In this document: positions 35,353-61,845 of the stretch, piece after piece
Position numbering within the stretch: the first letter of the stretch is position 1
How the letters are laid out: every line of letters begins with the position of its first letter
Virus record (IMG/VR): IMGVR_UViG_3300025913_000027
Location: 1 to 64,000 of that record
DNA length: 64,000 bases
DNA from: a virus
Strand: one strand, 5' to 3'
Translations under genes and position numbers: made by a program
Notes under the pieces: generated by a model
Seen by the model: the letters and a program-made list of their open reading frames with translations, nothing else
The model's database searches: none
Told to the model about the DNA's origin: nothing

Positions 35353-35607
35353 ATGAAGGACGCCCTCGGTCATGGATCAAACGCTTTGGGGACAGCGCTG
35401 AAAGAGCGGCTCGCCGAGCAGGCTCGGATGTTCGGCGCGCAGACCCCTGTCGTATCGACAGCGCCGAAGTCCAATCCGGTCCCGGTCCATCCCGCGATGG
35501 CCCCGGTCATTCGCGCGCCCGAAGTTCGGGCAAACGATTATCGTTCGAATGGGCAAGAGGCGAACCGCAGTCTTGTGGCGAGCATTCGCAATAGGGGGCT
35601 CCGATGA
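35353..35607 (+). CDS. KDxxGHGSN-leader protein 1
   Basis: Starts MKDALGHGSNA; also contains KSNPVPVHPAM. Confidence 0.85.
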   Translation: MKDALGHGSNALGTALKERLAEQARMFGAQTPVVSTAPKSNPVPVHPAMAPVIRAPEVRANDYRSNGQEANRSLVASIRNRGLR

Positions 35608-35948
35608 AAGACGCAAAAGGTCACGGCAGCAATGCAGGCGCGCACTCGGGCGGCGTCCAGAAGACCCCACAACTCCAGCGCCGCCACTTTGAGGCGATAG
35701 CCGCCGACCTGAAAGCCAAGAACGCGAGCCCAGACGAGGTTCATGCAATGGCTGACAAACTCGCGACCACCAACCCCGGCTTCCGGCGCGACTTCTTTGT
35801 CGCGGCAGCGACCGGCGGCAACTATCGGTTCAAGGGTCCGGGGGCTAAGGCCGAAGCTGTAGCGAAGAAAGCCGGGAGCTTCCAAGCCGCTGCTCGCGCG
35901 TTCTCGGACAAGACTGCAACGATGCGCGCCGAGCGCGGAAAGAAGTAG
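35604..35948 (+). CDS. KDxxGHGSN-leader protein 2
   Basis: Starts MKDAKGHGSNAGAHSGGVQKTP; cargo RRHFEAIA...NPGFRRDFF. Confidence 0.85.
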   Translation: MKDAKGHGSNAGAHSGGVQKTPQLQRRHFEAIAADLKAKNASPDEVHAMADKLATTNPGFRRDFFVAAATGGNYRFKGPGAKAEAVAKKAGSFQAAARAFSDKTATMRAERGKK

Positions 35949-36040
35949 TAATGGTATGCGCCGCTTGGTCGATGCCCTGTTTAGGCTCGGCCTGCTGCTG
36001 GTAGCAGGGAGTATTCTGCTCGCGTTGATAGGAAGACGGT

Positions 36041-36280
36041 ATGAAGGATGCATTCGGCCACGGGAGCAATGCCAAGCTGACCCAGACGCACGGCCCCGCG
36101 TCACCGATGCCGCGCGGCCCGACCGGTAAGGGTAGCGGCGAGCACAGTTCGGGCGGCATCGCTGTCACGTCGAACGCGCAGGCGGCTCAGGCGTTGATGT
36201 CTGTGTTGAAATCTACGCAAGCCCCTATTCATCCTGCGATGGCTTTGCGGTCGTCGCCAGACGGCGGATCAGCATCATGA
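36041..36280 (+). CDS. KDxxGHGSN-leader protein 3
   Basis: Starts MKDAFGHGSNA; contains AQALMSVLKSTQAPIHPAM. Confidence 0.85.
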   Translation: MKDAFGHGSNAKLTQTHGPASPMPRGPTGKGSGEHSSGGIAVTSNAQAAQALMSVLKSTQAPIHPAMALRSSPDGGSAS

Positions 36281-36441
36281 GCACAAAGAGGGAAGTCAAT
36301 GATCAAGTCGCGCAAGCTGCACTTTGCTATGGCGGCAAGTCTTGCAAGATGCCTACGCACTCTTCAATGGCAAGCACCGAAGAGAACCCCGACGCCAGTG
36401 CGACCGACGCCGAGCCCGATAGCGAAGACTACGAAGATTAA
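36277..36441 (+). CDS. 54-aa protein with the KSxxxPxHxxM motif (absent from the ORF track)
   Basis: Hand translation MSTKREVNDQVAQAALCYGGKSCKMPTHSSM...EDYED-stop; ATGA-coupled. Confidence 0.7.
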   Translation: MSTKREVNDQVAQAALCYGGKSCKMPTHSSMASTEENPDASATDAEPDSEDYED

Positions 36442-36453
36442 GGGAGTTTGATC

Positions 36454-36900
36454 ATGGCGAAAGATGCACTAGGCCACGGCAGCAATGCGCGCGGCGGTAA
36501 GAGGGCTCTCGCGAAACCTATTCCGGGTCACCCGTTCCATACGAAGTCCGACGCCGAACTTCGCTTCATCGCCAAGGATGCAGCCGAGGCCGGGCGCAAC
36601 GCGCAGGAGATGGGCGATCAGCGCGGCGTCAGTAAGTACGCCGATCAAGTCGCGGACGCGGCGACTGTCATGGGTTATCGCAATCGCGGCGGCGCGCAGG
36701 ACCTCGGGTCGCGGGCAGCGAGCGAGCTGGCCAGCGGCGCGAAGTCGGCGACTGTTCCGGTTCACGACAGCATGAGCACGGATGCGTTCGGCCGTCCGCG
36801 CTCCGCCGAAAACCGCGCCGAGTACGACGAATATAATCGTGATCTCGCTCTACGCGCTCGCAACGGACAGGTCGGAAGCGGCATGAAGTTCCGGGGCTGA
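36454..36900 (+). CDS. KDxxGHGSN-leader protein 4
   Basis: Starts MAKDALGHGSNA; cargo SDAELRFIAKDAAEA; contains GAKSATVPVHDSM. Confidence 0.85.
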   Translation: MAKDALGHGSNARGGKRALAKPIPGHPFHTKSDAELRFIAKDAAEAGRNAQEMGDQRGVSKYADQVADAATVMGYRNRGGAQDLGSRAASELASGAKSATVPVHDSMSTDAFGRPRSAENRAEYDEYNRDLALRARNGQVGSGMKFRG

Positions 36901-36901
36901 C

Positions 36902-37057
36902 ATGGTCGGCCAGAGAATTTCGAAGCCCGTGCAACCAATTGTTAAGATTGTTCTGCCAAACCGAGTGCGCCGAACGCCGGTCCCTGCTATCAGCCCCGAG
37001 CTGGACAAGGCGCTCGACGAATTTGTTGCGGACAAGCCGAAGGACATCGCGAAATGA
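36902..37057 (+). CDS. 51-aa hypothetical protein (absent from the ORF track)
   Basis: MVGQRISKPVQP...KDIAK-stop fills the gap exactly; its stop overlaps the next ATG. Confidence 0.5.
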   Translation: MVGQRISKPVQPIVKIVLPNRVRRTPVPAISPELDKALDEFVADKPKDIAK

Positions 37058-37290
37058 AAGACCCACTGGGACATGGCAGCAACGGGCGCGGGGCTTTCAA
37101 GGCCCCGAAGCACCAGTACAAGGTCGAGCGCCACATCGCATTCCACGGCCAGACAGCGGCCGGGCAGAAGGTGACTACGTCCGGCAACGTCTGGGGCAAG
37201 GTCGGCGCGAGCACGCGTCGCGCGGTCGCAGAGAAGATCGCCCAGTTCACGCGGGTCGATGATAAAAATGCCCGAGTGAGGATCAGGTGA
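37054..37290 (+). CDS. KDxxGHGSN-leader protein 5
   Basis: Starts MKDPLGHGSNG. Confidence 0.85.
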   Translation: MKDPLGHGSNGRGAFKAPKHQYKVERHIAFHGQTAAGQKVTTSGNVWGKVGASTRRAVAEKIAQFTRVDDKNARVRIR

Positions 37291-37616
37291 AAGACGCGAA
37301 GGGACACGGCAGCAACGCGCACAGTGACGGGGTCGAGAAAATCCCGGGTACAGCTTACGCGGTGCATCGTGACCACAACATTCAGCTAACTGCGATCAAC
37401 GAAGCGCATGCGAGAGTGCTCGCCCAATTCCCTAAAGGCCCGATGGGGCTGACCCCGGACCACGTCAGGGCGACGCCGGAGTACAAGACTGCCAAAGCAA
37501 ATTTCGATAGGTCCTTCGCTGCACTTCGGGACCACAACGCATTCATGACCAAGAACTTCAAGAAAGAAATGAAGGCGGATCGCGACGCGAGACGACAGGC
37601 GAGGTTAAAGAAATGA
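37287..37616 (+). CDS. KDxxGHGSN-leader protein 6
   Basis: GTG start, MKDAKGHGSNAHSDGVEKIPG; cargo FPKGPMGLTPDHVRATPEY. Confidence 0.85.
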   Translation: MKDAKGHGSNAHSDGVEKIPGTAYAVHRDHNIQLTAINEAHARVLAQFPKGPMGLTPDHVRATPEYKTAKANFDRSFAALRDHNAFMTKNFKKEMKADRDARRQARLKK

Positions 37617-38065
37617 AGGACGCGAAGGGACACGGCAGCAACGCGCACAACGCGGGCGTCGCGGCCCTCCCGAAGAGCTGGTCGGGTATCGGCTATCACG
37701 GGACTGCCTCGAAGTTCGAAGAGTTCAAGGCGGCCGAGCCTGTCACGCCAGTTGGCAAAGACCTCAAGGGTATCTACTTTTCTGGAGATGCAAGATCGGC
37801 ATCGGGATACGCGGCCCGGGCGAGCAGACGCGAAGGGGCGGATCGACAGAGCGTAATCGAGGCTCAGCTCCACATGAATAATCCGCTCGACATCACGGCG
37901 GCGATCAAAAACGGACAACGTAGAGGGCTATCATTCGGAGATGCGAAGCGGGAGGCGCTCAAAGGCGTGCAGCCGCACCACGACGGCGTCATCTTCAAGG
38001 GCAACTCGGCGAACCCGCCGGAGTACATCGTGTTTCATCCATCGCAGATAAAGAGGACGAAATGA
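37613..38065 (+). CDS. KDxxGHGSN-leader protein 7 with ADP-ribosyltransferase-like cargo
   Basis: MKDAKGHGSNAHNAG, then YHGT...GIYFS...ASGYA...NPL...HDGVI...EYIVFHPSQIK. The ART-like call is an inference. Confidence 0.8.
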   Translation: MKDAKGHGSNAHNAGVAALPKSWSGIGYHGTASKFEEFKAAEPVTPVGKDLKGIYFSGDARSASGYAARASRREGADRQSVIEAQLHMNNPLDITAAIKNGQRRGLSFGDAKREALKGVQPHHDGVIFKGNSANPPEYIVFHPSQIKRTK

Positions 38066-38511
38066 AGGACGCGAAGGGACATGGCAGCAACGCGCACAAT
38101 TCCGGTATAGCGAATATCGGGAAACTTCGACTGCATCCGAACGTCATCAAAACTGTCGTCAGGAACCCCGGCGGATTTTCTGTCAAGCCGGTAAACGGTC
38201 AACAGCCCGAGAGCGGCTATATGGTTTCGATACCCGGGCACACTCAGATCGTATCCGAGGCGGCGCTGCGCGGGCCGCAGGGTCGAGATATAATTTCGCA
38301 ATACGCCAACGAGCATGCAGGCGTGCTCCGCGATCCCAAGGCGCATATCGGCGGATGGACGGACAAGGAAAGCGGTAAGACCTACCTCGACGTGTCCCAT
38401 CGGTATGATAACAAAGGCGATGCAGTGAAAGCCGGAAAGGCTCACAATCAAATCGCCATATGGGATGTGAAACATGGCGCAGAAATCCGGACGGGCGGGA
38501 CAGGAGAGTAG
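38062..38511 (+). CDS. KDxxGHGSN-leader protein 8
   Basis: MKDAKGHGSNAHNSG; globular cargo GGFS...GYMVS...IGGW...YLDVS...QIAIWD. Confidence 0.85.
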   Translation: MKDAKGHGSNAHNSGIANIGKLRLHPNVIKTVVRNPGGFSVKPVNGQQPESGYMVSIPGHTQIVSEAALRGPQGRDIISQYANEHAGVLRDPKAHIGGWTDKESGKTYLDVSHRYDNKGDAVKAGKAHNQIAIWDVKHGAEIRTGGTGE

Positions 38512-38514
38512 ATC

Positions 38515-38712
38515 ATGGCGGACCCGATCACAGTTTCGGACGACGAGGCTGCGAGCGTGCTGGCCAATGGCCATCCTAAAAGCAAGCCTCCGTCCCTTCA
38601 CGACGGCAATCCGTTCCCTGCGACTAGCACGGGCGTTGGCTCGGCTCCGGGCGCGAACGGCCCAGCTACGACAGGGGCGATAGGTCCCGGAGGCCCTCTA
38701 GCAAGTTGCTAG
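38515..38712 (+). CDS. small protein with a variant of the KS..H motif
   Basis: VSDDEAASVLANGHPKSKPPSLHDG; GGAG RBS. Confidence 0.65.
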   Translation: MADPITVSDDEAASVLANGHPKSKPPSLHDGNPFPATSTGVGSAPGANGPATTGAIGPGGPLASC

Positions 38713-38741
38713 TTGTTTGCGCGCCGTCGAGCCTGTAAGCT
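38706..38741 (+). promoter_or_regulatory. putative late-class promoter
   Basis: TTGCTAG-TTGTTT-N17-TAAGCT. Confidence 0.6.
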
Positions 38742-38778
38742 TGGCAGAGAAATTCCATTTTTGCGCGAGGGCCACATC

Positions 38779-39090
38779 ATGGTTGCAACTCATCCCGGCA
38801 TGTCCGATCAGACCGACAGCAACATCGCTCGCGATGGTGCGGCTAAGCGGACCCAGACCAAATTTCCGGTCAAGGAGGGCATGAAGGACATGACCACCTA
38901 TTCGGCCGGTCCGGCTAACCCCGGCGTAGGCCCGGACGCGTCTTCGGCCAACCCGCTTGATCCCGAGCCCAAGTCAAAGAAGTCGGGCGAGGTCAAGGCC
39001 TCGTGGGGCATGCGAGATGCAAACGGCCAATCGGTGAACGGCGAACTCGGCAAGGCAGTTCTCGCGGAGGCTGCAAATCTCGGAAGGTAA
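38779..39090 (+). CDS. low-complexity hypothetical protein
   Basis: GAGG RBS, start MVATHPGMSD; repeated GM[SKR]D. Confidence 0.7.
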   Translation: MVATHPGMSDQTDSNIARDGAAKRTQTKFPVKEGMKDMTTYSAGPANPGVGPDASSANPLDPEPKSKKSGEVKASWGMRDANGQSVNGELGKAVLAEAANLGR

Positions 39091-39232
39091 AAAGATCATG
39101 GTGTGGCTGCAAGCGATCTCATGCGTCTTCTTTGCTTTCCTTGTTGCCATGCCGATCATTGATCCCGAGATGGAGTTCAAGAAGCCCGACACGCCAGATG
39201 CGTGGACCGAGCCTCTTTAAGGGAGAAATACC

Positions 39233-39553
39233 ATGGTGAATGCAGTTGACGCTCAGAGCGCAGACGGTGAAGTTTTCATCGGTTCGCGTGAGAAGGCCAA
39301 AAACGGGTATGGGCAGAACGGCTATCATGGGCCGTCGAGCGATCTTCCCGGGCAGGCCACGCGTGCGAACCGTGACTTCGGTCTCGCCGCTGATCCGTCA
39401 GCGAGTGCAGGCGACTGGCAGACCCGCAAGGTCTCGAAGGACGCCTACCCGACCACGTTCGGGATGAAGGCTCCCGGCGAACCCGCCAAAGTCCCTGACG
39501 CCAACATCCGGCGCGCGTCCAAGCAGGCCGCGCCCGGGTCATTCCAGCGCTAA
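39233..39553 (+). CDS. low-complexity hypothetical protein
   Basis: GGGAGA RBS, 106 aa. Confidence 0.7.
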   Translation: MVNAVDAQSADGEVFIGSREKAKNGYGQNGYHGPSSDLPGQATRANRDFGLAADPSASAGDWQTRKVSKDAYPTTFGMKAPGEPAKVPDANIRRASKQAAPGSFQR

Positions 39554-39565
39554 AAGGAGACCGCA

Positions 39566-39913
39566 GTGTTGAAACTCGCATCGGCCGCTCTGGCGGCATT
39601 GCTCGTTCTGTCCCCCGCACTCGCCTCGACCAAAAAGCACTCGGCTGCCCCCGCGAAGACATGCACCACTCTTGATGCCCTCTCCGTCAAGCTCGAAGGC
39701 GTCCCGCTCTCTGTCAAGCTCGAAGGCGAGAAGCTCGGCGCGTTCCGGGAGAAGGTTCAAGGCCTCCCGGAGACAGTCGATCTTATCGCGGTCTTTGGTA
39801 AGAAGGGGAGCGGAAATTTCTTTGCCGTGTTCTTCGCCAAGGGGTGTGCGGTAGGCTGGGGCGCGGTCCCGGCCGCACTCATTGAGAAGCCCGCTGACGA
39901 TGGGTCCATCTGA
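39566..39913 (+). CDS. secreted/periplasmic protein
   Basis: Signal peptide MLKLASAALAALLVLSPALA; two Cys; AGGAG RBS. Confidence 0.7.
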   Translation: MLKLASAALAALLVLSPALASTKKHSAAPAKTCTTLDALSVKLEGVPLSVKLEGEKLGAFREKVQGLPETVDLIAVFGKKGSGNFFAVFFAKGCAVGWGAVPAALIEKPADDGSI

Positions 39914-40170
39914 ATGGCTGAGACTGTGAACACGTGTAAACCGTCGAGTTTACACAAGCGGCTCCAGCGTCAACTCGAAGGTATCGAGAAGCATCTGGAA
40001 CAGTTCCCCAACGACAAGCTCAGTCAGGTCCGAGCATCCACGATCCGGGCCGAACTCAGCAAATAGGCGCGACCGCGTATATCCCTGAGATATTCGCTGT
40101 CGCGTATTTTTGTGGCGCGCATGGGCGCGCTCCTTCGACATGATGTCGATGCGCGATGGAGGATACCCGC

Positions 40171-40980
40171 ATGAGCGGCAAAGTCGATGATCTAGCAGAT
40201 TTGCTCGGCCCCGAACCGGAGGTCGAAAACCTTGTTGACGAGGCTCCAGCCACAGCTCCCGCATCTCGCCCGATGGGCGCGGAAAGCCGAGCCCTCCTAG
40301 AACGGTCGCGCACTTATCCAGTCAATCGCGCGGCCAAGAAGAACACCCCTGAAATGCTCCGCCGACTTTTGAGCTACGCCGCAGAGATGCCCGTGGGCAC
40401 CACCGCCGCGCGTCGCGCTGGTATCTCCTACACGACCCTCCGGTATTGGCTCCAGAAATCTCTCGAAGGAAAACCGGGGGATGGTTTCGATGTCGTCATG
40501 GGCGACGCTGACGAGAATGGCACTGAGGATAACACAGAGCGGTTTCATATCGCATGGGACCGAGCGATGGAAATGGGCGTCGGTCTCGTGCAGGAAGCGA
40601 CGATCAAGCGCGCCATGGGCTACGAAGAGGTCCTGACTTATCGAGGGCGCGTACAGTATCAGTACGACCCTGAGAAGTGCGCGCTATCGCGTGAACTCGG
40701 TCTTCCGGAATTTGTCCCTGAGAATTATCTGCTCGACGAGTTCGGTGCGCCCCGCCCGGAGACGGTCTGGAAGATCGACCCCGATCTTGCGATGTTCATC
40801 CTCAAGACGCACATGCCGGAGAAGTATGGCAACAAGGCCAGCGTTGATGTCAACGTGCGCGGCGGAGTGCTCGTCGTCGGCGTGCGAGCGGCTACCTCGG
40901 AGGCTCTCAATCAGATCGAAGAAGAAAATCTTCGGGCCAAGCGACCGGCGGTCACGTTCGTTGAGGAGGACGACGAGTAA
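40171..40980 (+). CDS. terS: putative terminase small subunit
   Basis: Directly before terL; HTH-like AARRAGISYTTLRYW; LAMFILKTHMPEKYG; GGAGG RBS. Confidence 0.75.
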   Translation: MSGKVDDLADLLGPEPEVENLVDEAPATAPASRPMGAESRALLERSRTYPVNRAAKKNTPEMLRRLLSYAAEMPVGTTAARRAGISYTTLRYWLQKSLEGKPGDGFDVVMGDADENGTEDNTERFHIAWDRAMEMGVGLVQEATIKRAMGYEEVLTYRGRVQYQYDPEKCALSRELGLPEFVPENYLLDEFGAPRPETVWKIDPDLAMFILKTHMPEKYGNKASVDVNVRGGVLVVGVRAATSEALNQIEEENLRAKRPAVTFVEEDDE

Positions 40981-42563: not shown

Positions 42564-42594
42564 CGCCGTTAACCATAACTGATAGAGGGACCCG

Positions 42595-42987: not shown

Positions 42988-42988
42988 C

Positions 42989-44852: not shown

Positions 44853-45104
44853 GTGAGTGATCCGGCTGGGCCGCACATCGTAAAAACCTTTCACGAGGCC
44901 ATCGATATCCTCGACGCCTGTGAACCGGCGATACGGGACATGATCGAGACGCACTTGATGGATGTTGCCGGGATTAACAAGACACGGGTCAGCGATGCCA
45001 TGCTGTCCCGTGACGAGCTGACGAAGCGCATCGTTGCGCTTCGTCATCACCACATCAAGGCGGCATTCCGCCATCTGAGAGAGCATCTACCCAGTGACAT
45101 ATAA
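44853..45104 (+). CDS. hypothetical protein
   Basis: 83 aa between the portal and the 45094 gene. Confidence 0.5.
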   Translation: MSDPAGPHIVKTFHEAIDILDACEPAIRDMIETHLMDVAGINKTRVSDAMLSRDELTKRIVALRHHHIKAAFRHLREHLPSDI

Positions 45105-46083
45105 CCCCGCCCAACCCCGCAACAATCATGGCGAGTTCGGCACGACCGACGTAGCCTTGAAGGGGCCGCAACAAACTGGAGGCGCGAGTGCAGTCGTTAC
45201 CGAACGGCCGATCAATGTTGCTGCTCACAAGGGGGCGACCACTCCCGAAGAGGCGCAGGCGCAAGCGGTCCTTGTCGCGGCTGGAGCAAAACCTCTTGAT
45301 GGGTTACCTCAGAAGCCTATCGCGCTTGAAGGACAGTGGTATGTTCCGGGACCAATCGGGCGGCTCCGCGACGCGGCCAGTGAGTATATGAGATCGGCCG
45401 GGCTGCCCTACAGCCCGCCAACCGAATACGCGAAGCTCGATAAGGAGCGGGCTGCACGGATCGCGACTGAGTACGACAACGAGAAAAACGACCCGACCGA
45501 TCCGAAGGTGAAGGCGAGCTACGAGGCGATGGCCAAGGAAACTCTCGCGCAGTGGGAAGTGATCAAGAAGACGGGTCTTCAAGTCGAGTGGGTCAAGCCC
45601 GGGCAGAAGGACCCCTACGCCCTGTCGCCGCGTCTCGCGGCGATGGACGTGAGCGAGAACAACCATTGGTGGGGATTTCCCACGGACCTCGGGTACGGCT
45701 CCGGCGTCGGCGCGAGCGACATGAGCAAAGACAATCCGCTGCTGCGACCGACCGGCGAAGTGATCGACGGGCGCAAGGTTGTCGTCAACGATGTCTTTCG
45801 CATCGTGCATGACATGATGGGCCATTTGAAGGAAGGCAATGGTTTCAGAGCCGAGGGCGAGGAAAACGCTTGGCGCTCCCATGCCGCGATGTATTCGGAC
45901 CTCGCGCGTCCGGCGATGACGAACGAAACGCGCGGACAAAATTCGTGGGTCAACTATGGCCCGCATGGTGTGACCAACCGAACGGCTGACGCGGAGCATA
46001 CGATCTTCGCTCCGCAGAAGATTGGGCTCATGCCAGACTGGACAGAGAACGAGGGTCGGATCGATGACAAACGCCCTCATTGA
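45094..46083 (+). CDS. head-module protein with N-terminal YNPAQPRNNHGEF motif and an enzyme-like C-terminal domain
   Basis: 329 aa; NDVFRIVHDMMGH...GEENAWRSH...ETRGQNSW. Confidence 0.75.
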   Translation: MTYNPAQPRNNHGEFGTTDVALKGPQQTGGASAVVTERPINVAAHKGATTPEEAQAQAVLVAAGAKPLDGLPQKPIALEGQWYVPGPIGRLRDAASEYMRSAGLPYSPPTEYAKLDKERAARIATEYDNEKNDPTDPKVKASYEAMAKETLAQWEVIKKTGLQVEWVKPGQKDPYALSPRLAAMDVSENNHWWGFPTDLGYGSGVGASDMSKDNPLLRPTGEVIDGRKVVVNDVFRIVHDMMGHLKEGNGFRAEGEENAWRSHAAMYSDLARPAMTNETRGQNSWVNYGPHGVTNRTADAEHTIFAPQKIGLMPDWTENEGRIDDKRPH

Positions 46084-46399
46084 GGAAGAACACGAGCACG
46101 ACGGCGAGGCGTGGGCCAAGCACCGTATTCGGACTGGACAGAAGAAGGTCCTGAAAATTCACGGGCACGAACTCGCGCGCTGGGCGAGGCACATCGCTGC
46201 TCAGGATGCCCAGCGCATCCACACTGCAATCAGCGTCGGCCTCACGGCTGGCGAGGATAACACGGATATCGCCCATCGCGTCATAGGCAGCCGCCGTAAC
46301 AACGGCTCCAACGGCGTGACGGAGATCACGAGACAGCACATCCTCCGCCTTGGTCGAGGACTGCTGCATAAGCGTAAATCCCGCATGAGCGGTGCCTGA
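46064..46399 (+). CDS. short MuF/SPP1 gp7-like fragment
   Basis: W...DAQRIHTAISVGLTAGEDNTDIAHRV resembles the middle of minor head proteins; canonical position; no C-terminal MuF domain. Confidence 0.5.
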   Translation: MTNALIEEEHEHDGEAWAKHRIRTGQKKVLKIHGHELARWARHIAAQDAQRIHTAISVGLTAGEDNTDIAHRVIGSRRNNGSNGVTEITRQHILRLGRGLLHKRKSRMSGA

Positions 46400-47733: not shown

Positions 47734-50240
<2,507 letters not shown>

Positions 50241-50297
50241 CGGATCAACATCCGTGTGCTACCGGAGCTATGGTTTAGTTAAGGAGTGTCCCCCGCA

Positions 50298-51422
50298 ATG
50301 CGTTTCCATGTTCTCGGCATTCCGCACACGATCTCGACCCCGGAGTATTCGAGTTGTGCCTTTACCCAGAAGGTCGTCAAGCTCTGCAAGATGCTGATGA
50401 TGGAGGGTCACGAAGTCTTTCACTATGGACACTCCCAGTCGAAGGTCAGTTGCACAGAGAATGTTGTCTGCACGACGCCGCAGGACTTGAAAATTTCCTA
50501 CCCGGGCCACGACTGGCGCAAGAGCGGTTTCCCCGACTACAAATTATCCGATCACTGCTATCAGGTGTTTTACTGTAGCGCGAAGGAAGAGATCGGTCGC
50601 CGCAAGCAACCCGGAGACTTCCTTCTCTGTCCGTTCGGAATGGGACACAAAGCGGTTGCTGACGCGCATCGGGATATGCTCGTGGTGGAGAGCGGCATTG
50701 GCTATCCGCACGGCACCTTTGCTCCGTACCGAGTTTTCGAAAGCTACGCGATCATGCACGCGTATCAGGGCACGGCGGCGGCAATCGACGCGCGCAATGA
50801 TTTTTGGTATGACGCCGTGATCCCAAACTCTTTCGATCTCGACGAGTTTGATTTTTCGGATAGCTTCGATCTCCCCGACGATGAAGGCTATTTCCTCTTC
50901 CTCGGTCGGCAGAACTCAGGCAAAGGCCTGCACATCGCTAAGCAGATTGCGGAAACGACAAAGACCAAGCTCGTCGTCGCTGGCCCCGGCCCGCTGGAGA
51001 TGCCATCCGAATTTATCCAACCATTGGGCGTCGTCGGCCCGGCGAGGCGGCGAAAACTTCTGAGCCAAGCCAAGGCGACAATATGCGCCTCGACCTTTCT
51101 CGAACCATTTTGCGGAGTGCAGATCGAAAGCATGCTCTCGGGCACGCCGGTCATCTCGTCGGACTGGGGCGCGTTTGCGGAGTATAACGTCCACGGCCAG
51201 ACGGGTTACCGATGCAAGACTTTCGAGCAGTTCGTTTGGGCTGCAAACAATATCGGAGGGATTAAACGGCGGCAGTGTCGTAACTGGGCCATGAACTTTT
51301 CGCTGGAGAAAATCGCTCCGATGTACTCGGACTACTTCCGCTCGGTGCAGGATATTTACGGCGGAAAAGGCTGGTATGAGACCCGCACGGATCGGCAAAA
51401 TCTAAGCACGTCGAGCTTCTGA
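50298..51422 (+). CDS. GT-B fold (GT4-like) glycosyltransferase
   Basis: VIPN, FLFLGRQNSGKG, EPFCGVQIESMLSGTPVISSDWGAFAE, GQTGY. Confidence 0.9.
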   Translation: MRFHVLGIPHTISTPEYSSCAFTQKVVKLCKMLMMEGHEVFHYGHSQSKVSCTENVVCTTPQDLKISYPGHDWRKSGFPDYKLSDHCYQVFYCSAKEEIGRRKQPGDFLLCPFGMGHKAVADAHRDMLVVESGIGYPHGTFAPYRVFESYAIMHAYQGTAAAIDARNDFWYDAVIPNSFDLDEFDFSDSFDLPDDEGYFLFLGRQNSGKGLHIAKQIAETTKTKLVVAGPGPLEMPSEFIQPLGVVGPARRRKLLSQAKATICASTFLEPFCGVQIESMLSGTPVISSDWGAFAEYNVHGQTGYRCKTFEQFVWAANNIGGIKRRQCRNWAMNFSLEKIAPMYSDYFRSVQDIYGGKGWYETRTDRQNLSTSSF

Positions 51423-52768: not shown

Positions 52769-52780
52769 CGGAGGATCACC

Positions 52781-53831: not shown

Positions 53832-53930
53832 AGAGGTCTCTGCCCAATGGTTTCGCTCATCTCGGGCAAGGCTACCCCCAAAGCGCCGCCGTGCAGCGAT
53901 GCAGGCGGCGCTTTAGCATAGAAAGCACGA

Positions 53931-54845: not shown

Positions 54846-54888
54846 GCCGCGAACATGCTAGTTGTTCGCCCCCATAGGATAACATAGA

Positions 54889-55766: not shown

Positions 55767-55778
55767 CGGAGAGAACCT

Positions 55779-56348
55779 ATGCCCATTGGAAACGAACATA
55801 TCGAGGGCTCCCTCGTTAGCCCGAACATCGGCAACTACTACATCGGCAAGGGCATCGTCAGCATCAAGCTGCTTGGCGAGACCGAGTTTGTTGATTGCGG
55901 CAACGTTCCGCAGTTCGAGTTTCTGGCGAAGGTCACTCAGCTTGACCACTTCTCCAGCCGGACCGGCGTTCGTGTCAAGGACTTCACCGCCGTCATTGAG
56001 ATCGCGGGCTCGCTTACGATGCAGCTCGAAGAGCTGACCGCGCGCAACATGGGCTTCGCTCTGCTCGGTCTGCCGACCGGCGGCCCGTCGCCGGTCCCGG
56101 ATACAATCGACATCTTCTCCAGCCCGGTCATCTACGGCTCGGTGCGGTTCGTCGGCACCAACGACATCGGCCCCATCTGGACGGTGAACTTCCCTCTCGT
56201 GAAACTGTCGCCCTCGAAGGCTCTCGGCCTGATCGCGAATACGTGGGGCGTCATCGATCTCGAAGGCGACGTGCTGTTCGATCAGTTGCAACAGACCTTC
56301 GGCACCGCGACCGTCTCGCTGCCGAACTCGCCTACCAGCAACCTCTAA
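55779..56348 (+). CDS. major tail tube protein
   Basis: NYYIGKGIV, DCGNVPQFE, LEELTARN; followed by a hairpin. Confidence 0.8.
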   Translation: MPIGNEHIEGSLVSPNIGNYYIGKGIVSIKLLGETEFVDCGNVPQFEFLAKVTQLDHFSSRTGVRVKDFTAVIEIAGSLTMQLEELTARNMGFALLGLPTGGPSPVPDTIDIFSSPVIYGSVRFVGTNDIGPIWTVNFPLVKLSPSKALGLIANTWGVIDLEGDVLFDQLQQTFGTATVSLPNSPTSNL

Positions 56349-56356
56349 GCTATCAG

Positions 56357-56397
56357 CCCGTGGCCTGTTTTCAGCATCCGTTGAAACAGGCCACGGG
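56357..56397 (+). terminator. long hairpin after the tail tube gene
   Basis: CCCGTGGCCTGTTT...AAACAGGCCACGGG, a 14-bp stem. Confidence 0.6.
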
Positions 56398-56475
56398 GCT
56401 TATGGTTTCATAGGCCAAAACGGACAGAAAATGTCCGTTTCGGCGTATGAAGTATCCCACCGGAGAACTCCCCCC

Positions 56476-56859
56476 ATGACCGACGAAACTCAAGACCCCG
56501 CTGCCGCCCCTGTAGTGGCTCAGGATGCGCCCGCTGCCGACCCGGCCCCGGAAGTCGCCGCCGACCCGGCAGCCGCTCCAGACCCCGTTTCTGAGGCTCC
56601 GGCCGCCGACCCGGCCCCGGAAGTCGCTGCCGACCCGGCCCCGGAAGTCGCTGCCGACCCGGCCCCGGAAGTCGCTGCCGACCCGGCCCCGGAAGTCGCC
56701 GCCGACCCCGCTCCGGCGGCTGATCCCGCTCCGGCTGCCGACCCCGTAGCGGACGACGAGGACCTCGAAATCGAGATCACCGAAACGATCCGGGTCCACA
56801 ATCCGAACGCCCTCCGTGGCGTCCCCGCCGGTCCGCCTCCGCATCCGCGTACCGTATAA
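56476..56859 (+). CDS. acidic Pro/Ala-rich repeat protein
   Basis: GGAGA RBS; DPAPEVAA repeats. Confidence 0.7.
   Translation: MTDETQDPAAAPVVAQDAPAADPAPEVAADPAAAPDPVSEAPAADPAPEVAADPAPEVAADPAPEVAADPAPEVAADPAPAADPAPAADPVADDEDLEIEITETIRVHNPNALRGVPAGPPPHPRTV
56608..56703 (+). repeat. 24-bp coding tandem repeat, four copies plus one at 56539
   Basis: GACCCGGCCCCGGAAGTCGC(T/C)GCC. Confidence 0.9.
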
Positions 56860-56904
56860 GGTTTCTACCCTATCGAATGTCCCCCTTCGAATAAGGAATA
56901 GATT

Positions 56905-57366
56905 ATGAGCACCAAGCCGGGCCTCAATCTGGCCGATCTCGCCCCAATGTATGAAGACGTGCCAATTGGAGACAGCTACCTCCGCGTCCACGGTATCAGC
57001 GCGAAGACCGGCCTCGAAATCTTCAAGCGCTTTCCCAAGGTTCTGGGAATGGTTGGTGAAGGGTTCAATCTCGGAAACTTTCTGGCAGTAGCTCCCGATG
57101 CCGTGGCCGCGATCATCGCAGCCGCGACCGACAACCTCGGCGATGAGAAGGCAGAAGCGGTAGCAGCCGGGCTCGGGGTCGAGACCCAGTTTGATATTTT
57201 GGAAGCGGTAGGGAGGCTTACCTTTACAAGAGGGTTCGCCCCTTTCGCGGAGAGGATCATGGCCCTCGCAGGCGCAGCCAACTCCGGCCTCTCTTCAAAG
57301 GTGCCGGATTTGAAATCGCCGCCAGCATCGAAGCCCTCATCGCCGCCGGACACCCCCCAAGCGTAG
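56905..57366 (+). CDS. tail assembly chaperone
   Basis: Between tail tube and tape measure genes; slippery CCCTTTC at 57240. Confidence 0.8.
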   Translation: MSTKPGLNLADLAPMYEDVPIGDSYLRVHGISAKTGLEIFKRFPKVLGMVGEGFNLGNFLAVAPDAVAAIIAAATDNLGDEKAEAVAAGLGVETQFDILEAVGRLTFTRGFAPFAERIMALAGAANSGLSSKVPDLKSPPASKPSSPPDTPQA

Positions 57367-57527
57367 TCTGGGACTACACCCCCAGACAGATGGCAGCTTT
57401 CACGTTTCTCGCGGTCAAACGGAAGAACCGTGAGGACCATGCCTCGCTCTCGTTGATGCTACTCGCGCAGAGTGGTGACGAGAAGGCGGTCAAGAAGCAA
57501 TTGGAGACTTGGGAGAGGGATGCCTGA
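57240..57527 (+). CDS. -1 frameshift extension of the tail assembly chaperone
   Basis: The -1 frame is open from C CCT TTC to TGA 57525-57527 and reads ...IEALIAAGHPPSVVWDYTPRQMAAF... Confidence 0.75.
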   Translation, partial: PFRGEDHGPRRRSQLRPLFKGAGFEIAASIEALIAAGHPPSVVWDYTPRQMAAFTFLAVKRKNREDHASLSLMLLAQSGDEKAVKKQLETWERDA

Positions 57528-58075
57528 TGCCCCTTCGCATCACAACCGATAAGATCGCGGCCCCGAAGTTCAAACAGAATTTGGCTGGGCTCCGAGACCG
57601 GTTCGAGAAGGCCCTGACTGCCTCAGTCAACATGGCTGCGTCCATGATCAAAGAACAGGCCGATGCGGATATCGCTGGAGCTGGAAATTTCGGACAACGC
57701 TGGACGGAGGGCCTGCATGTAGACGTGAGCGACACGCTCGGCAACATGCGGATCAGCGTCACGCATGATATCCCTTATGCCGGGATTTTCGAGACCGGCG
57801 GTGTGATCAAGGGAAATCCATTCCTCTGGATACCGATCAGCGGGACGGATGCCGAGCGCACTCCCGCAAGCGCGTATAGTGGAGGGCTCTTCTCCGTCAA
57901 CCGCAAGAGCGGCGGCCCACCGCTGCTCTTCTCCATTTCGGATAAACAACCGAAGTATTTCGGGGTCGAGAGCGTCACGATCCCGAAGAAATTCCATACC
58001 GGCGAAATCGTGAAGAGTGTGATGGGGAATTTCCGTCAGATATTCGATAGCGCGTTTAGGAGTAGGACCGTCTGA
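57527..58075 (+). CDS. tail completion-like protein
   Basis: TGATG coupling; PYAGIFETGGVIKG.PFLWIP. Confidence 0.65.
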   Translation: MPLRITTDKIAAPKFKQNLAGLRDRFEKALTASVNMAASMIKEQADADIAGAGNFGQRWTEGLHVDVSDTLGNMRISVTHDIPYAGIFETGGVIKGNPFLWIPISGTDAERTPASAYSGGLFSVNRKSGGPPLLFSISDKQPKYFGVESVTIPKKFHTGEIVKSVMGNFRQIFDSAFRSRTV

Positions 58076-60375
58076 TGCCCAATCTTGACGACATCACGCA
58101 AAAGATTTTGATCGACGGCGACGCCGAGGTCATCAATAAGCTCAGTGAGATCGGAGAGAAAGGCTTCGAGGCGATCAAGGAGCTTAGCGAAGCGGCGGAG
58201 AGCGGAGCGAGCGGACTTGAAATCTTCGGGACAGCAATCGGCGAAGTAGGCGCGACGATCATCGGGGTCGTCGGCGCGATCTCAGCGTTCGTCGATGCCA
58301 ATGACGAAGCCATCCAGCGTACCAACTTCCTCGCGCAGGCGTTCGGGGCCACGACTGAGCAAGTCGTCGGGCTCGAAGCCGCGTTTGCCGCCGCTGGCGT
58401 CAGCACGCGTACCTTCGAGCAGTTCGCCCAGCGGCTCACGACGACTATCGCGCGTGAGTGGCCTGCGATTACCGAGAGTATCCGGACTTCGTCCAACGAA
58501 CAGGACGCGGCTCAGGAGCGTGTTGTCTCTTCGACCATCAAAGTGCAGGAGGCCCAGCGGGCACTTGGTTTCGTAAATGACGAGACCGCCAGCAAGATCG
58601 CTAACTCGTCCCTTCGGGCACAAGCGGCATACACCGCGCTCCAGTTCGCGGCCTCCCATGCGCTCCAGCAAATCCAGCACGACACGGATAGCGTGCGCGG
58701 TGCCGATCTTAGTTTGGAGAGCGCGCAACAGCGGCTCGCCGAGCTAGAGGGCCGCCCAGTATCGGAAGCGGACAAGCAGGCCCTTCAAATTCGCGAAGCT
58801 CAGCTTGCCGTGGACAAAGCCCGGCAGGCGGCAGCGGATGCTCGCATCGCGCAGCAGGAGCATGCGGCGCAAGCGGCGGCTAAGCAAGCTCAGCTCGAAC
58901 AGGCGGCGGAGGATGCCGCCCTAAAACACGAGACTGCCATTTCCGAGGCTGCGACCTCGCGACAGAAGGCGGAAGAGGCCGTGCGCTCTGCGATCACCGC
59001 TCGCGCCGAGGCCGAGGATCGCGCTCAGCAGATCGCGCTCAAGAGCATCCCGGCGATCAAGTCGGCAATCGAAGGGCTGACCGACGGTAGCAAGGCGGCC
59101 ACGACGGCTATCGATCTGACGCAAGTTTCGGTCACCAATCTGACTAAGGGCATCATTGCTGCCGCTCAGGTCGGCGATAAGCCGCCGACCGGTTTTCAGG
59201 TTATGGTCGAGCTGTCCCGTGTTCTTTCCAGCGAACAGGGCAAGCTCATCGACAGCTCGCAAAAACTCGCTATCGTCCAGCAGCTCAGTCAGCGCGGTTT
59301 CAGCACAACGAGTGGAGCGGCCTTTGAGCTGCTCAACGCGCTGGAGCGCGGGCCGGAGTATTTCAAGAGGTTCGAGAACGCGGCCAAATCCCATTTCTCG
59401 GTCAACGAGCAAGGGCGGCAGAACGTCGAACACTTTAGAGATGCTATCGCTGCGCTAGGTCAGAGCATCGAACTTGTCAATCGCGACTTCGCGGCTGCCG
59501 CGAGCCCAATCTTCACGAGCTTCCTTGAAGCGCTCAATGAGAGCCTGACCACGAGCGACGGGCTGCTGCATGCGGTCGTAGCGGGCGTTCAAGCTATCGG
59601 TGCGGGTCTTGGGGTCGTTATCGAGGGCTATCAGAAGCTCGCGACTGCGATTGATCATGCGTTCAATCTTGAGCCCGGGAGGGCGATGCAGGCTCTTATT
59701 GGGGCGGCTATCACGGCGGTTGCGCTCTTCGCATCCGCGTGGCTGGCGGTCCCGGCTGCGATTGCGGTCGTGGTGACAGCTATCGGCTACATCGCGGAAA
59801 ACTGGGATAAAGTACGAGAAGGGGCAGCTCGCGCATGGGAGGCGGTCACCAATAGCTCGGTAGTCAAATTCTTGGAGAGCGTCCTCGAAGAGGTGAAGGC
59901 TATCTGGAGTTTCCTCTCGAAGATCGTCGCGGCAGCGAACACCCTATCTCCGATAAGCGGCAAGAGCGGCGGCGCGAGTGCTGGCGCGGGAGGCAGCGAA
60001 AGTGGCGCGCAGGGGTTCGCGGAAGGCGGCCCCATCAACGGCCCGGGAACGACTACGAGCGACAGCATCCTCGCGCGCCTGTCGCGCGGCGAGTTCGTCA
60101 TCAAGGCAGCGGCGGTGCAGACATATGGCGCTGGGCTCTTCCATGCGCTGAACAACATGATGCTGCCCGGCTTCGCGTCCGGTGGCCTCGTGCCATCTCC
60201 GGTCCGTCTGCCCGGCGGCGGCAGCGTGCCCGCGACGAGCACATTGAACTTGTCAATCGACGGACGATCCTTTAATGGTTTGCGGGGGCCGAAGAGCACG
60301 ATTGACGACCTCTCCAGCTTCGCGATTGCCCGCCAGACTTCGGCGGCGGGTAGCAACCCTTCATGGATGAAGTAA
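58075..60375 (+). CDS. tail tape measure protein
   Basis: 766 aa, Ala/Gln-rich helical sequence; late hydrophobic segment; GFAEGG...GPGTTTSDSILARLSRGEFV motif. Confidence 0.9.
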   Translation: MPNLDDITQKILIDGDAEVINKLSEIGEKGFEAIKELSEAAESGASGLEIFGTAIGEVGATIIGVVGAISAFVDANDEAIQRTNFLAQAFGATTEQVVGLEAAFAAAGVSTRTFEQFAQRLTTTIAREWPAITESIRTSSNEQDAAQERVVSSTIKVQEAQRALGFVNDETASKIANSSLRAQAAYTALQFAASHALQQIQHDTDSVRGADLSLESAQQRLAELEGRPVSEADKQALQIREAQLAVDKARQAAADARIAQQEHAAQAAAKQAQLEQAAEDAALKHETAISEAATSRQKAEEAVRSAITARAEAEDRAQQIALKSIPAIKSAIEGLTDGSKAATTAIDLTQVSVTNLTKGIIAAAQVGDKPPTGFQVMVELSRVLSSEQGKLIDSSQKLAIVQQLSQRGFSTTSGAAFELLNALERGPEYFKRFENAAKSHFSVNEQGRQNVEHFRDAIAALGQSIELVNRDFAAAASPIFTSFLEALNESLTTSDGLLHAVVAGVQAIGAGLGVVIEGYQKLATAIDHAFNLEPGRAMQALIGAAITAVALFASAWLAVPAAIAVVVTAIGYIAENWDKVREGAARAWEAVTNSSVVKFLESVLEEVKAIWSFLSKIVAAANTLSPISGKSGGASAGAGGSESGAQGFAEGGPINGPGTTTSDSILARLSRGEFVIKAAAVQTYGAGLFHALNNMMLPGFASGGLVPSPVRLPGGGSVPATSTLNLSIDGRSFNGLRGPKSTIDDLSSFAIARQTSAAGSNPSWMK

Positions 60376-60993
60376 ATGCCCAAAGACGCACTGGGACACG
60401 GAAGTAATCCTAGAGGCCTCGCGGGCGAACACTTGCCCGTGTGGTATCACGGCTCGCCGACCGGCTTTCCCGGTCTGACTGGCCCTATCCATGTCGGCAC
60501 TTATCGCGCCGCCCGCATGGCGCTTGAAGCGCGCATCGGCGTGCCTGCGGATGGGAAAGGCTGGGACGGGACGCGAGAGTATGGAAAGACGCTGCTCGCC
60601 GGAAAGGAAACGCTCGCTAAAATGGAGAGTGGCGAGAAGCCCTACTACAATAAGTATCCGGCGTCCGGATACAATGCAGGTAGTTGCGACGAAGAGGTCC
60701 CGCAAAAAGACTACTATCCAGATCAGCGAAAGAGCTTGCCGACGATGGGGAGGGACCGAACGCCAATGTCATTGACCATGCGCCCGGCTGTCCGGGCCTA
60801 TCAGATAAATGGCCCGATGAAGAACTCTCCGGGAACGCCGTACACCGACACGCGAGCCAATGCTCTTGCCCGAGCGCAGCAGACCAAGGGCAACGGCAAG
60901 CACGGCTTCTATTACACAAATGATGCCGAAGACAGCGGCAGTATCTCGGCTGTCGTGCCGAACCACGAGCACTTAACAGGATTGGTAGAATAG
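60376..60993 (+). CDS. KDxxGHGSN-leader protein 9 with possible ART-like cargo
   Basis: MPKDALGHGSNP, then WYHGS...IHVGT...GFYYTNDAEDSGSIS. Confidence 0.8.
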   Translation: MPKDALGHGSNPRGLAGEHLPVWYHGSPTGFPGLTGPIHVGTYRAARMALEARIGVPADGKGWDGTREYGKTLLAGKETLAKMESGEKPYYNKYPASGYNAGSCDEEVPQKDYYPDQRKSLPTMGRDRTPMSLTMRPAVRAYQINGPMKNSPGTPYTDTRANALARAQQTKGNGKHGFYYTNDAEDSGSISAVVPNHEHLTGLVE

Positions 60994-60994
60994 C

Positions 60995-61465
60995 ATGCCC
61001 GGCGGATTTGAAAACATTCTCCCCGCGAATGCGGATACGATCCTAACGATCTCATCGTTCGGGAACATGCTGTATCAGGCGCGTGGCCTGACGCAAACCC
61101 TGTCCGTGATCGGCGAGGCAACTCAGCAGGACCGCACGATCAACGGCACTCTCGTCGATCTCTCAGTCGCGCAGTTCCGCAAGTATTCCTCGAAGATCAC
61201 CTCTCCGAGCGATACGAACGCTCCGCCGCTCGACGGCGTCTTCCCCGGTATGATCGTCACCGTACAGTGCGCGGTCGGGCTCTCGTATCTCACGAGCGGC
61301 GGGAACGGCCCCAACCATCGCACGCCAGTCTCCGGCTCTGTCTATACCGAAGGAGCATACACCTTCTATCGACCCGAACTCACGATGATGGTCAAGACCG
61401 TCGAAACTCAGTTTGATGAATGGAAGAACGTGGTAGGCTGGACCTTAGAGCTTGAGGAAGTCTGA
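60995..61465 (+). CDS. putative distal tail protein
   Basis: ARGLTQTL...RTINGTLVDLS...FRKY...WTLELEEV; follows the tape measure gene. Confidence 0.7.
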   Translation: MPGGFENILPANADTILTISSFGNMLYQARGLTQTLSVIGEATQQDRTINGTLVDLSVAQFRKYSSKITSPSDTNAPPLDGVFPGMIVTVQCAVGLSYLTSGGNGPNHRTPVSGSVYTEGAYTFYRPELTMMVKTVETQFDEWKNVVGWTLELEEV

Positions 61466-61845
61466 TGAAAGATGCCAAGGGTCACGGCAGTAACGCGCAT
61501 AATTCCGGCATCGATAAAATTCCGGGCTGGAGCCCGGTCAAACTTGTGCCGACGAATAGCCTCCGTCCGCGCCCAGAGAATACCGCGATGATTGAGAAAT
61601 TCAAAGCGCGAGATGCGGCCAGCGAGAGGGCTTTTCGCGAAGCATATCCCGGAGAGAAATACGTGCCGTATCCGGGCGACATGCGCTACAAAGTAGACGA
61701 GATCAGAAAGACGATCCGGACAGGGGGCTCTCTTCCGCCGCTCGCGGTCAACAAAGACAACACGATAGAAGACGGCGAAAACCGCTGGAATGCCTATAAG
61801 GCCGAAGGCGTAAAGATGATCCCGGTTAGGATTAAAACTAGATGA
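61465..61845 (+). CDS. KDxxGHGSN-leader protein 10 with ParB/Srx-like cargo
   Basis: MKDAKGHGSNAHNSGIDKIPG, then LPPLAV...IEDGENRWNAY...IPV. Confidence 0.85.
   Translation: MKDAKGHGSNAHNSGIDKIPGWSPVKLVPTNSLRPRPENTAMIEKFKARDAASERAFREAYPGEKYVPYPGDMRYKVDEIRKTIRTGGSLPPLAVNKDNTIEDGENRWNAYKAEGVKMIPVRIKTR

Follow-up and report, generated by a model that had tools for sequence, protein, structure and literature searches.

Introduction

The internal proteins IPI-III of phage T4 share a short N-terminal peptide, behind which interchangeable cargo is loaded into the head and injected, as described in PMC3012670. The T4 capsid targeting sequence (CTS) reads MKTYQEFIAE, and the internal proteins are cut once beside it, according to bioRxiv 10.1101/2021.01.19.427310. 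Here, we analyze a stretch of viral DNA of 64,000 nucleotides (positions 1-64,000 of the 83,932-bp IMG/VR record IMGVR_UViG_3300025913_000027; 59.5% G+C; CheckV completeness estimate 80%), which we call the window. Ten open reading frames (ORFs) in it begin with the same short leader, M, MA or MP followed by K-D-[AP]-x-G-H-G-S-N, and carry bodies that are otherwise unrelated. This leader, termed the tag in the following, is under selection as a peptide and recurs in other phages in contexts that point inside the head, so that a head-interior role of the tagged proteins appears likely.

The T4-type cut follows the rule [LI]-x-E. Other systems in which a constant part meets variable cargo differ in design. 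MuF-type polymorphic toxins, reportedly described by Jamet and co-workers in 2017, are head-morphogenesis proteins with variable C-terminal toxin domains, and Iyer, Aravind and co-workers are said to have described, in 2017 as well, large polyvalent proteins of phages and conjugative elements. The cargo-loading peptides of encapsulins, which are short, Gly-rich, disordered and usually C-terminal, address unrelated cargo into an HK97-fold shell. In the Dar antirestriction system of phage P1, anti-defence proteins are packaged in the capsid and loaded via an N-terminal signal; to our knowledge, the Dar cargos share no motif. How cargo is chosen for carriage in the head and injection is largely unknown in tailed phages beyond T4 and P1, in particular in siphophages in which no prohead protease has been found. 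The tag described here comprises nine residues, occurs in 8-11 genes per genome, is invariant in siphophage, T4-like and other large phages, and coexists with a T4 targeting peptide.

Results

Exactly ten copies of the tag were found when the window and the entire 83,932-bp genome were scanned in six frames; all are on the plus strand, each directly after the start codon (Table 1). Three further GHGS strings in the genome are unrelated to it. At the nucleotide level, a degenerate back-translated pattern matched ten times in the window, against 0.00 expected from 100 shuffles. Most of the tagged starts are either preceded at 5-10 nt by a purine-rich stretch of the Shine-Dalgarno type or coupled by overlap to the preceding gene, and the ORF at 36454 has an extra in-frame TTG upstream, at 36448. 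The first 10-13 residues are often followed by x-[RHK]-G-G or AHxxG[VI], and the longer continuation AH[NS]xG[VI]xx[ILA][PG] is present in five copies. BLASTP among the ten bodies gave short motif matches and no full-length similarity. The best match between bodies covers 12 residues (E 0.002, 35353 against 36041) and corresponds to a second motif; also common to some bodies is a 9-11-residue extension (AH..G[VI]..) right behind the leader.

Over the nine core codons, 405 comparisons between the window copies yielded 202 synonymous and 38 non-synonymous codon-pair differences, the latter confined to motif positions 3-4. The Ser codon is TCA once, AGC seven times and AGT twice, and in other genomes Ser is likewise drawn from both codon families. 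Nucleotide identity of the core averages 75% in the window (range 59-96%) and amounts to 74-82% in other genomes; identity falls to about 28% in the flanks of the window copies, taken as the 27 nt before them and codons 16-35 behind. Selection acts on the leader at the peptide level. The sequence-only reading had listed the same ten ORFs, counted the extension in five of them, called the bodies otherwise unrelated and deduced peptide-level selection from the synonymous codons and the single TCA. All four statements are borne out: every ORF lies at its given position with no further copy genome-wide, and the bodies, sharing short motifs only, are not full-length paralogues.

Each genome keeps its own set of residues at tag positions 4, 9 and 10, which differ from one genome to another (among others in loci L019, L049, L004, L005, L009 and L025), with K4/D9 throughout one genome and L4/N9 in others. 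The mutual information between locus and residue exceeded that of all 2000 shuffles for positions 4, 9 and 10, and did not for position 11. Since the codons for these three positions and for Ser still vary synonymously within such genomes, the pattern speaks for selection of the residue itself rather than simple gene conversion. It suggests a co-adaptation of the tag to a shared partner that would be specific to the phage or to its host.

The distribution was surveyed with a degenerate DNA scan of IMG/VR, which returned 89 stretches with the pattern, many of them with 3-10 copies on one strand. The strict motif K-D-x-x-G-H-G was counted 276 times; in 248 cases a start codon precedes it by one or two codons, and the remaining 28 copies are placed otherwise. 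The N-terminal strict copies correspond to 184 unique complete proteins of 33-205 residues (median 126.5). Five related records hold 10, 8, 11, 8 and 11 copies, all on the TerL strand and most within a few kb upstream of TerL, and a reversed-pattern control in these records gave none. Homologues of TerS, TerL and portal flank the array in 29, 28 and 23 of the 89 loci, respectively, and in L003 a tagged gene (3997-4410, plus strand) begins exactly at the portal stop, inside the head module of a related contig. An exhaustive profile search with a hidden Markov model (HMM) retrieved 296 of 1.84 billion representative proteins at E<=0.001, and the match begins at residue 1 in 127 of the best 150. 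Of 5.8 billion proteins longer than 70 residues that were searched by word seeding, 8000 were scored, and 407 of these reached E<=1. The several copies per genome agree with the earlier expectation; the expected restriction to the N-terminus does not hold, as about one in seven of the best profile matches carries the tag internally.

Bacterial and archaeal genomes (596 Gb) yielded 56 single matches against about 70 calculated for chance. True N-terminal leaders in cells amount to five copies on four contigs of alphaproteobacterial metagenome-assembled genomes, Hyphomicrobiales among them (L102 with two copies, L118, L152 and L154). A likeness to the His loop of subtilases among the genome matches was rejected, the degenerate Ser codon also reading Thr. 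No tag was found in a direct pattern scan of five deposited phages, among them RDJL3, the closest relative in culture. The 24-residue leader had no tblastn match in 50,697 phage records, a search that is insensitive at this length; the carriers of 78, 148 and 114 residues had no tblastn match either, and megablast with 10 kb of the window returned a 57-nt terminase match only. The phage of the window is present in rhizosphere metagenomes, with at least 0.77 of the sampled words in five runs; no RNA run was among those listed for the array. We therefore assign the tag system to uncultured phages that are apparently not integrated. The tag itself is not represented in any Pfam or PHROG model. 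In the searchable literature we found no paper with six of its seven-letter forms and met the string GHGSN in unrelated papers only; the term ART-PolyVal led to papers on eukaryotic ART proteins only.

The 28 copies that do not follow a start codon were read individually. Seven are chance or repeat matches, one is cut at the end of its locus, nine lie in AT-rich contigs and eleven in G+C-rich contigs. In the AT-rich contigs the tag sits 7-42 residues into the protein and is preceded by MKSFLTYLKEE, MITFKELFEA, MITYSQFIKES, MLSFISYIKEE or similar peptides. The 166.5-kb T4-like record G001 has a Peptidase_S77 (gp21-type) gene (E 1e-38), and its two tagged proteins start with MKSFLTYLKEE and MITFKELFEA, the tag following directly; in L021, MITYSQFIKES precedes the tag. 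At 93.7-98.8 kb of G001 (L092-L100), three adjacent genes have T4-CTS-like starts, two of them tagged; the third begins MKDYKQLIKE and has no tag. Should the [LI]-x-E rule apply in these contigs, the tag would come to lie 0-1 residue from the newly formed N-terminus after the cut. The cargos in the AT-rich contigs include a DUF6267 protein with a ligase-like K-x-D-G motif and cytidylyltransferase-like proteins of 400-900 residues. Their homologues in cyanomyophage Syn33 lack the tag. In Syn33, a neighboring cytidyltransferase also begins with a CTS-like peptide.

In the eleven G+C-rich copies the tag is internal to long ORFs. The gene order in L081 is portal, a 695-residue protein with RNA-ligase and ART matches, an XkdF-type protease, a 325-residue gene and the major head protein, and the XkdF-type head maturation protease (PF14550, 5.6e-18) bears the tag at residue 412. 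In the proteins P0089 and P0250, the protease domain is followed by three tagged modules, and P0001, P0003, P0008 and P0241 contain 3-4 internal tags each. Across 53 internal copies, position -4 is V, I or L in 37, position -2 is K in 34 and position -1 is A in 35. This [VIL]-x-K-A junction is probably a processing site at which the tag would be exposed anew. The invariant residues of the tag are identical in all three architectures, that is, at native N-termini, behind T4-type peptides and inside polyproteins.

The proteins behind the tag are small and mostly without a recognizable family. Among the ten of the window, Pfam detects the ART-PolyVal domain in 37613 and, below threshold, ParB_N in 61465 (E 2.7e-4, 21.4 bits against the Pfam cut-off of 26.3), which also matches ParB-like PHROGs; the other eight have no credible Pfam match. 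The cargo of 60376 had been labeled ART-like for a W-Y-H-G-S motif, and this label is unconfirmed, Pfam and PHROGs giving no match at the thresholds used. PHROG matches always exclude the leader (residues 33-104 in 37287, 28-148 in 37613, 27-131 in 38062 and 67-125 in 61465). Leaderless relatives of the 38062 cargo occur in 207 deposited phage records, mostly mycobacteriophages of the cluster C type, and align from residue 27; the domain is also found in phrog_3170. As predicted, leaderless homologues of the cargo exist elsewhere, for the 38062 domain as well as for ART-PolyVal and ParB_N. The 38062 family was modeled with AlphaFold2 from 17 sequences, and the model has a predicted local distance difference test score (pLDDT) below 50 for residues 1-18 and of 87-96, in 10-residue blocks, over residues 21-149, and a Foldseek search with the cargo fold gave nothing at E<=0.001. 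The predicted disorder of residues 1-18 suggests that the tag is a disordered extension that is not packed on the cargo.

Within the 184 family proteins, 150 were scanned with Pfam out of the 165 left after removal of near-duplicates at 80% identity. Seven carry a Pfam domain (four ART-PolyVal, one Arr-ms, one ParB_N and one GNAT) and the other 143 none. The tag is portable and rides on unrelated bodies, as the sequence-only reading had it; in view of these counts, its "variable set of effectors" is an overstatement. Clustering of the 184 bodies gave 40 clusters, the largest of which (95 members) owes its cohesion to shared short modules rather than to homology over the full length. The second motif, A..L.SG.KS...P[VI]H..M, is found in 47 of the 184 by a PVH-type pattern, the AH..G[VI] module in 60, mostly immediately behind the tag, and several C-terminal blocks are recurrent among the bodies. 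The bodies of the tagged proteins are mosaics of recurring short modules. In the window, the second motif (A..L..G.KS...P.H..M) is present in three tagged proteins, and a looser form of it in the leaderless array ORFs 36277-36441 and 38515-38712.

A typical carrier is small, basic, rich in Gly and Ala (25%) and in His (4.4%), and nearly free of cysteine. The ten of the window have isoelectric points (pI) of 8.8-11.3 and nine of them lack cysteine; the median pI of 21 structural and late proteins of the same genome is 5.1. The 184 family proteins have a median pI of 9.9, with 87.5% above pI 9 and a cysteine fraction that rounds to 0.000. The leader itself is polar, Gly-rich and without a hydrophobic stretch; a Sec or Tat secretion signal was rejected, since neither a hydrophobic core nor a twin arginine is present. 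A leader of ribosomally synthesized and post-translationally modified peptides was rejected as well, the cargos including folded domains of 120-130 residues and the neighboring genes having no Pfam family and no maturase.

In its capsid and terminase proteins, the window phage shares about 55-58% identity with Roseobacter phage RDJL3 and with NP1/PaMx-type Pseudomonas phages, and it belongs to a chi/RDJL-like siphophage clade. Eight of the tagged genes are clustered in an array, whose end lies 1.6 kb upstream of TerS and which has the same orientation as TerS; the other two are translationally coupled inside the tail operon (Table 1). The position of 60376 right behind the tape-measure-like gene is kept in three other loci. 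The most constant neighbors of the array are the small untagged ORFs 38713-39090, 39233-39553 and 35104-35346 (all plus strand), which occur in 34, 27 and 27 of the 89 loci, respectively. The first two sit between the array and TerS; the third matches phrog_16160 (1.7e-22). The earlier statement that all ten genes have a late or structural context stands for 60376 and 61465; for the eight-gene array, with its position upstream of TerS, a late context is putative. Scans for promoter and terminator consensus sequences over 30-48 kb found sites no more often than in shuffles.

No match above cut-off to the prohead protease families Peptidase_S77, S78, XkdF-type (S78_2) or S49 was obtained in the record of the window (G000) or in four related records (G007-G010), three of which are complete, and ClpP had no match in G000. 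For S77 (PF03420), G000 gave no match at all and the best score in the four related records was 11.8 bits, below the cut-off. The earlier remark that no prohead protease was recognized holds for these five protease families; a prohead protease of some other family could exist in the clade.

Table 1. Tagged genes and head-module genes of the window (positions in the 64,000-nucleotide stretch)
Feature	Position	Strand	Description
Leader gene 1	35353..35607	+	84 residues, pI 11.2; leader and second motif (..KSNPVPVHPAM)
Leader gene 2	35604..35948	+	114 residues; cargo module TPQLQRRHFE...TTNPGFRRDFF recurrent in 17 loci
Leader gene 3	36041..36280	+	79 residues; leader and second motif; looks mostly disordered
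Leader gene 4	36454..36900	+	148 residues, MAKDA form; mosaic of KPIPGHPFH module, second motif and C-terminal ..GSGMKFRG module
Leader gene 5	37054..37290	+	78 residues, KDP form, pI 11.3; homologues in 21 loci, among the most widely conserved array members
Leader gene 6	37287..37616	+	109 residues, GTG start codon; cargo residues 33-104 match phrog_7560
Leader gene 7	37613..38065	+	150 residues; cargo is an ART-PolyVal ADP-ribosyltransferase domain, residues 28-148, E 8.7e-14
Leader gene 8	38062..38511	+	149 residues; folded cargo domain at residues 21-149; residues 1-18 predicted disordered
TerS	40156		head module
TerL	40980		head module
Endonuclease	42595		head module
Portal (DUF4055)	42989		head module
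Two small ORFs	44692, 44853		head module
ORF of 329 residues	45094-46083	+	head module; no Pfam family
MuF/gp7-like piece	46064-46399	+	about 111 residues; phrog_241, 3.9e-9
Scaffold	46438		phrog_206
Collagen-like gene	47967		head module
Glycosyltransferase	50286		head module
Major head protein (Gp13-like)	51607		head module
Leader gene 9	60376..60993	+	205 residues, MPKDA form; one base after the stop of a 766-residue tape-measure-like gene
Leader gene 10	61465..61845	+	126 residues; ParB_N-like cargo; overlap-coupled to both neighbors in the tail operon

The ORF at 45094 in the head module is connected with the tagged genes in two ways. It is the sole protein common to the window genome and a 197-kb polyprotein phage by BLAST better than about E 1e-4 (38% identity over 232 residues), and in that phage its homologue adjoins a tagged ORF. 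Together with the 38062 cargo it matches adjacent parts of one PHROG, and both fall under one annotated gene in mycobacteriophage Alice. Its 28 homologues share 66 invariant columns, including V-H-D-x-x-G-H and E-T-R-G-Q, which give it an enzyme-like core, and its N-terminus has the motif N-P-x-Q-x-R-N-x-H-G-E-F. The domain is widespread: among proteins of 180-576 residues, 601 are related to it at E<=0.001. In deposited phages it is found inside giant virion-type or "large polyvalent" proteins, and no tag was present in the three of these phages that were scanned. The ORF has no Pfam family and its best sequence match in the PDB has an E of 0.055. Its AlphaFold2 model (pLDDT 83) gave nothing at E<=0.001 in Foldseek and Z<=2.4 in VIA-align, and the Atlas returned unnamed viral clusters only (0.82-0.83). 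We do not propose it as a hidden protease or as a tag receptor, given the wide occurrence of the domain, the deposited carriers without tag and the missing family or fold match.

Two further observations concern the head module. The MuF-like piece at 46064-46399 overlaps the end of ORF 45094 in a different frame and aligns to residues 127-189 of the 337-residue morphogenesis protein of RDJL3 (E 1e-6). Between the scaffold and major head genes, the region 47967-51422 (plus strand) encodes a 757-residue collagen-repeat protein and a group-1 glycosyltransferase.

Discussion

We propose that the tag is a portable N-terminal short linear motif that would mark mature head-interior proteins and dock them to a partner, so that these proteins are kept and delivered together with the DNA. 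We hold this reading, taken as a whole, with about even confidence. Its first part, a role inside the head, seems likely because each independent context of the tag points there. The tag stands behind T4-type loading peptides, within protease or scaffold polyproteins encoded between portal and capsid, and at the start of genes in head or tail operons. Its cargo types are otherwise fused to head-associated carriers, ART-PolyVal and ParB_N being domains of polyvalent proteins, and the carriers are basic and disordered. In the clade of the window the tag is the native N-terminus of 8-11 proteins per genome, with no prohead protease found; in the T4-like phage it would become the new N-terminus after a cut by the gp21-type protease; and in the polyprotein phages it opens each module of a head-maturation-protease or scaffold-like polyprotein behind [VIL]-x-K-A. 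In all three cases the tag most likely acts as a short linear motif, located at the free N-terminus of the mature protein or close to it, and would dock its carrier to a partner inside the procapsid or the filled head. The carriers would then stay with the DNA and be delivered upon infection, with the cargo swappable behind the tag. Cleavage at the junctions, presence in the virion, docking, the identity of the partner and delivery to the host are steps that we infer.

The sequence-only reading had called the leader a capsid-targeting tag. The contexts uphold the head-interior part of this claim; packaging itself is putative. The idea of a simple analogue of the T4 targeting peptide does not stand, as in the T4-like phage the tag follows such a peptide and is a separate signal. 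From this coexistence it appears that the tag may not itself be the loading signal, and retention, positioning and ejection are equally plausible as its role. A more specific proposal, which we put forward tentatively and consider rather unlikely, is that the tag is a second address on head-interior proteins that is distinct from capsid targeting, a mature-N-terminus signal that crosses phage lineages and is either native or exposed by a protease. It could position the proteins at a phage-specific partner, for instance the portal or the leading end of the DNA, and they would leave through portal and tail. If this were true, any cargo behind the tag would be co-injected, from 30-residue peptides to 900-residue enzymes, and cassettes would be shuffled between split arrays, T4-type internal proteins and giant polyproteins. 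The principle of shared loading tags is known from T4; that the signal at work here is of another kind is nevertheless a serious possibility.

Several points weigh against a function of the tag inside the head. It is conceivable that the eight-gene array is part of an early or middle transcription unit; it is preceded by about 9 kb of small unknown ORFs, and 243 bp lie between TerS and the last ORF before it (39566-39913). The basicity is not specific to tagged proteins, since 8 of 19 small upstream ORFs also have a pI above 9. Cleavage at the T4-type and [VIL]-x-K-A junctions is deduced from sequence alone. The genome-specific variants could stem from a common origin of the arrays together with recombination between leaders, of which some pairs are 96% identical over 27 nt. 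That K, D, G, H, G and S do not vary among the 184 proteins is a partly circular result, as the search pattern demanded these residues. Finally, the tag is kept across phages whose capsid, portal and scaffold proteins have unrelated sequences, which fits a universal ligand such as DNA, metal or a host factor better than a partner among the structural proteins.

This last point leads to an explanation that we consider unlikely, namely that the tag is a docking motif for the host side. The carriers would then be non-virion proteins of host takeover or anti-defence, and the peptide would bind a conserved host component, DNA or metal after synthesis. Conservation across lineages with unrelated structural proteins would be expected of such a universal partner, the array does follow its 9 kb of small ORFs on the same strand, enzyme cargos such as ART, ParB_N-like, GNAT and Arr-ms would act on host targets, and the carriers are basic and His-rich. 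What this explanation leaves unaccounted for are the contexts: the T4-type targeting peptides directly before the tag, its place in head-maturation-protease polyproteins between portal and capsid genes, and the insertion of tagged genes in tail and head operons. In addition, the genome-specific variants of the tag argue against one invariant universal partner.

The internal copies could also be taken to indicate a protease site. The motif would then be the primed-side recognition sequence of prohead proteases, and the N-terminal copies would be relics of cassettes that came from polyproteins. The regular [VIL]-x-K-A or [LI]-x-E in front of the internal copies and, in P0089 and P0250, the position of the first copy directly after the XkdF protease domain are in line with this. 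However, the five genomes of the window clade have no S77, S78, XkdF or S49 match above cut-off, nor G000 a ClpP match, and nevertheless hold 8-11 copies each under strong peptide-level selection. S77 and XkdF, which are unrelated protease families, would both have to recognize the one motif, and residue -1 can be A, E, T, M, N or S, a variability that is unusual for P1. We regard this explanation as distinctly improbable.

The same low standing applies to an intrinsic chemical function, in which the G-H-G-S-[NDE] loop would bind metal or DNA phosphate, or be covalently modified, and would be needed by every carrier. An invariant His flanked by Gly and followed by Ser and an acidic or amide residue would suit such a role, as would the disorder of the tag, the x-[RK]-G-G that often stands behind it and its conservation across lineages. 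Genome-specific residues at positions 4, 9 and 10 are not expected of a purely chemical motif. On the other hand, such chemistry could be the very mechanism by which a head-interior tag works, and need not be a true rival.

That the leader DNA is only a homology patch for the shuffling of cassettes, with a functionless peptide, is very improbable and as sole explanation already disfavored by the codon data, for although some leader pairs are nearly identical, orthologous cargo families have different post-leader segments and the bodies are mosaics, the mean core identity is only 75% in the window and little different elsewhere, the differences are overwhelmingly synonymous with both Ser codon families in use, and the peptide is kept in AT-rich T4-like genomes and at internal positions. 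An effect of the first codons on translation initiation was rejected, since the peptide is also conserved internally and behind other peptides.

If the tag does mark proteins of the head interior, it would offer a sequence handle for finding injected proteins in metagenomes, a testable rule for the splitting and fusing of polyvalent effector proteins, and a candidate for a module by which phage particles could be loaded with foreign proteins. Should it act in the host or on DNA instead, it would still be an undescribed, widespread short linear motif of phage proteins.

A close known counterpart is the T4 CTS, likewise a short N-terminal peptide common to unrelated basic proteins, which in T4 are non-essential. 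The two sequences are unrelated, the window leaders having no resemblance to MKTYQEFIAE, and CTS-like peptides occur only in the T4-like records. The window tag has no [LI]-x-E cut site and its genome no S77 match. Where both signals meet, the tag sits behind the CTS-like peptide and not in its place, so that there are two signals, and unlike the CTS the tag is also internal in polyproteins. The Dar proteins of P1 belong to a different phage type. With encapsulin cargo-loading peptides the tag shares shortness, richness in Gly, disorder and a terminal position on unrelated cargo; the consensus is another one, the encapsulin peptides are usually C-terminal, and binding of the present tag to a capsid protein is only putative. 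MuF toxins resemble the tagged proteins in that variable effector domains ride on a constant N-terminal part into the capsid, with ART-type cargo in both, and the 695-residue RNA-ligase/ART protein near the portal of L081 is such a protein. The constant part here, however, is a peptide of 9-13 residues and not a folded MuF domain; the ten tagged proteins have no MuF match, and the MuF-like gene of the window is a separate ORF. The polyvalent proteins overlap with the tagged proteins in domain repertoire, ART-PolyVal and ParB_N (the latter below the curated cut-off). Those proteins are giant fusions, whereas the window carriers have 78-205 residues and one cargo each behind its own tag, and in the polyprotein phages the tag marks the joints.

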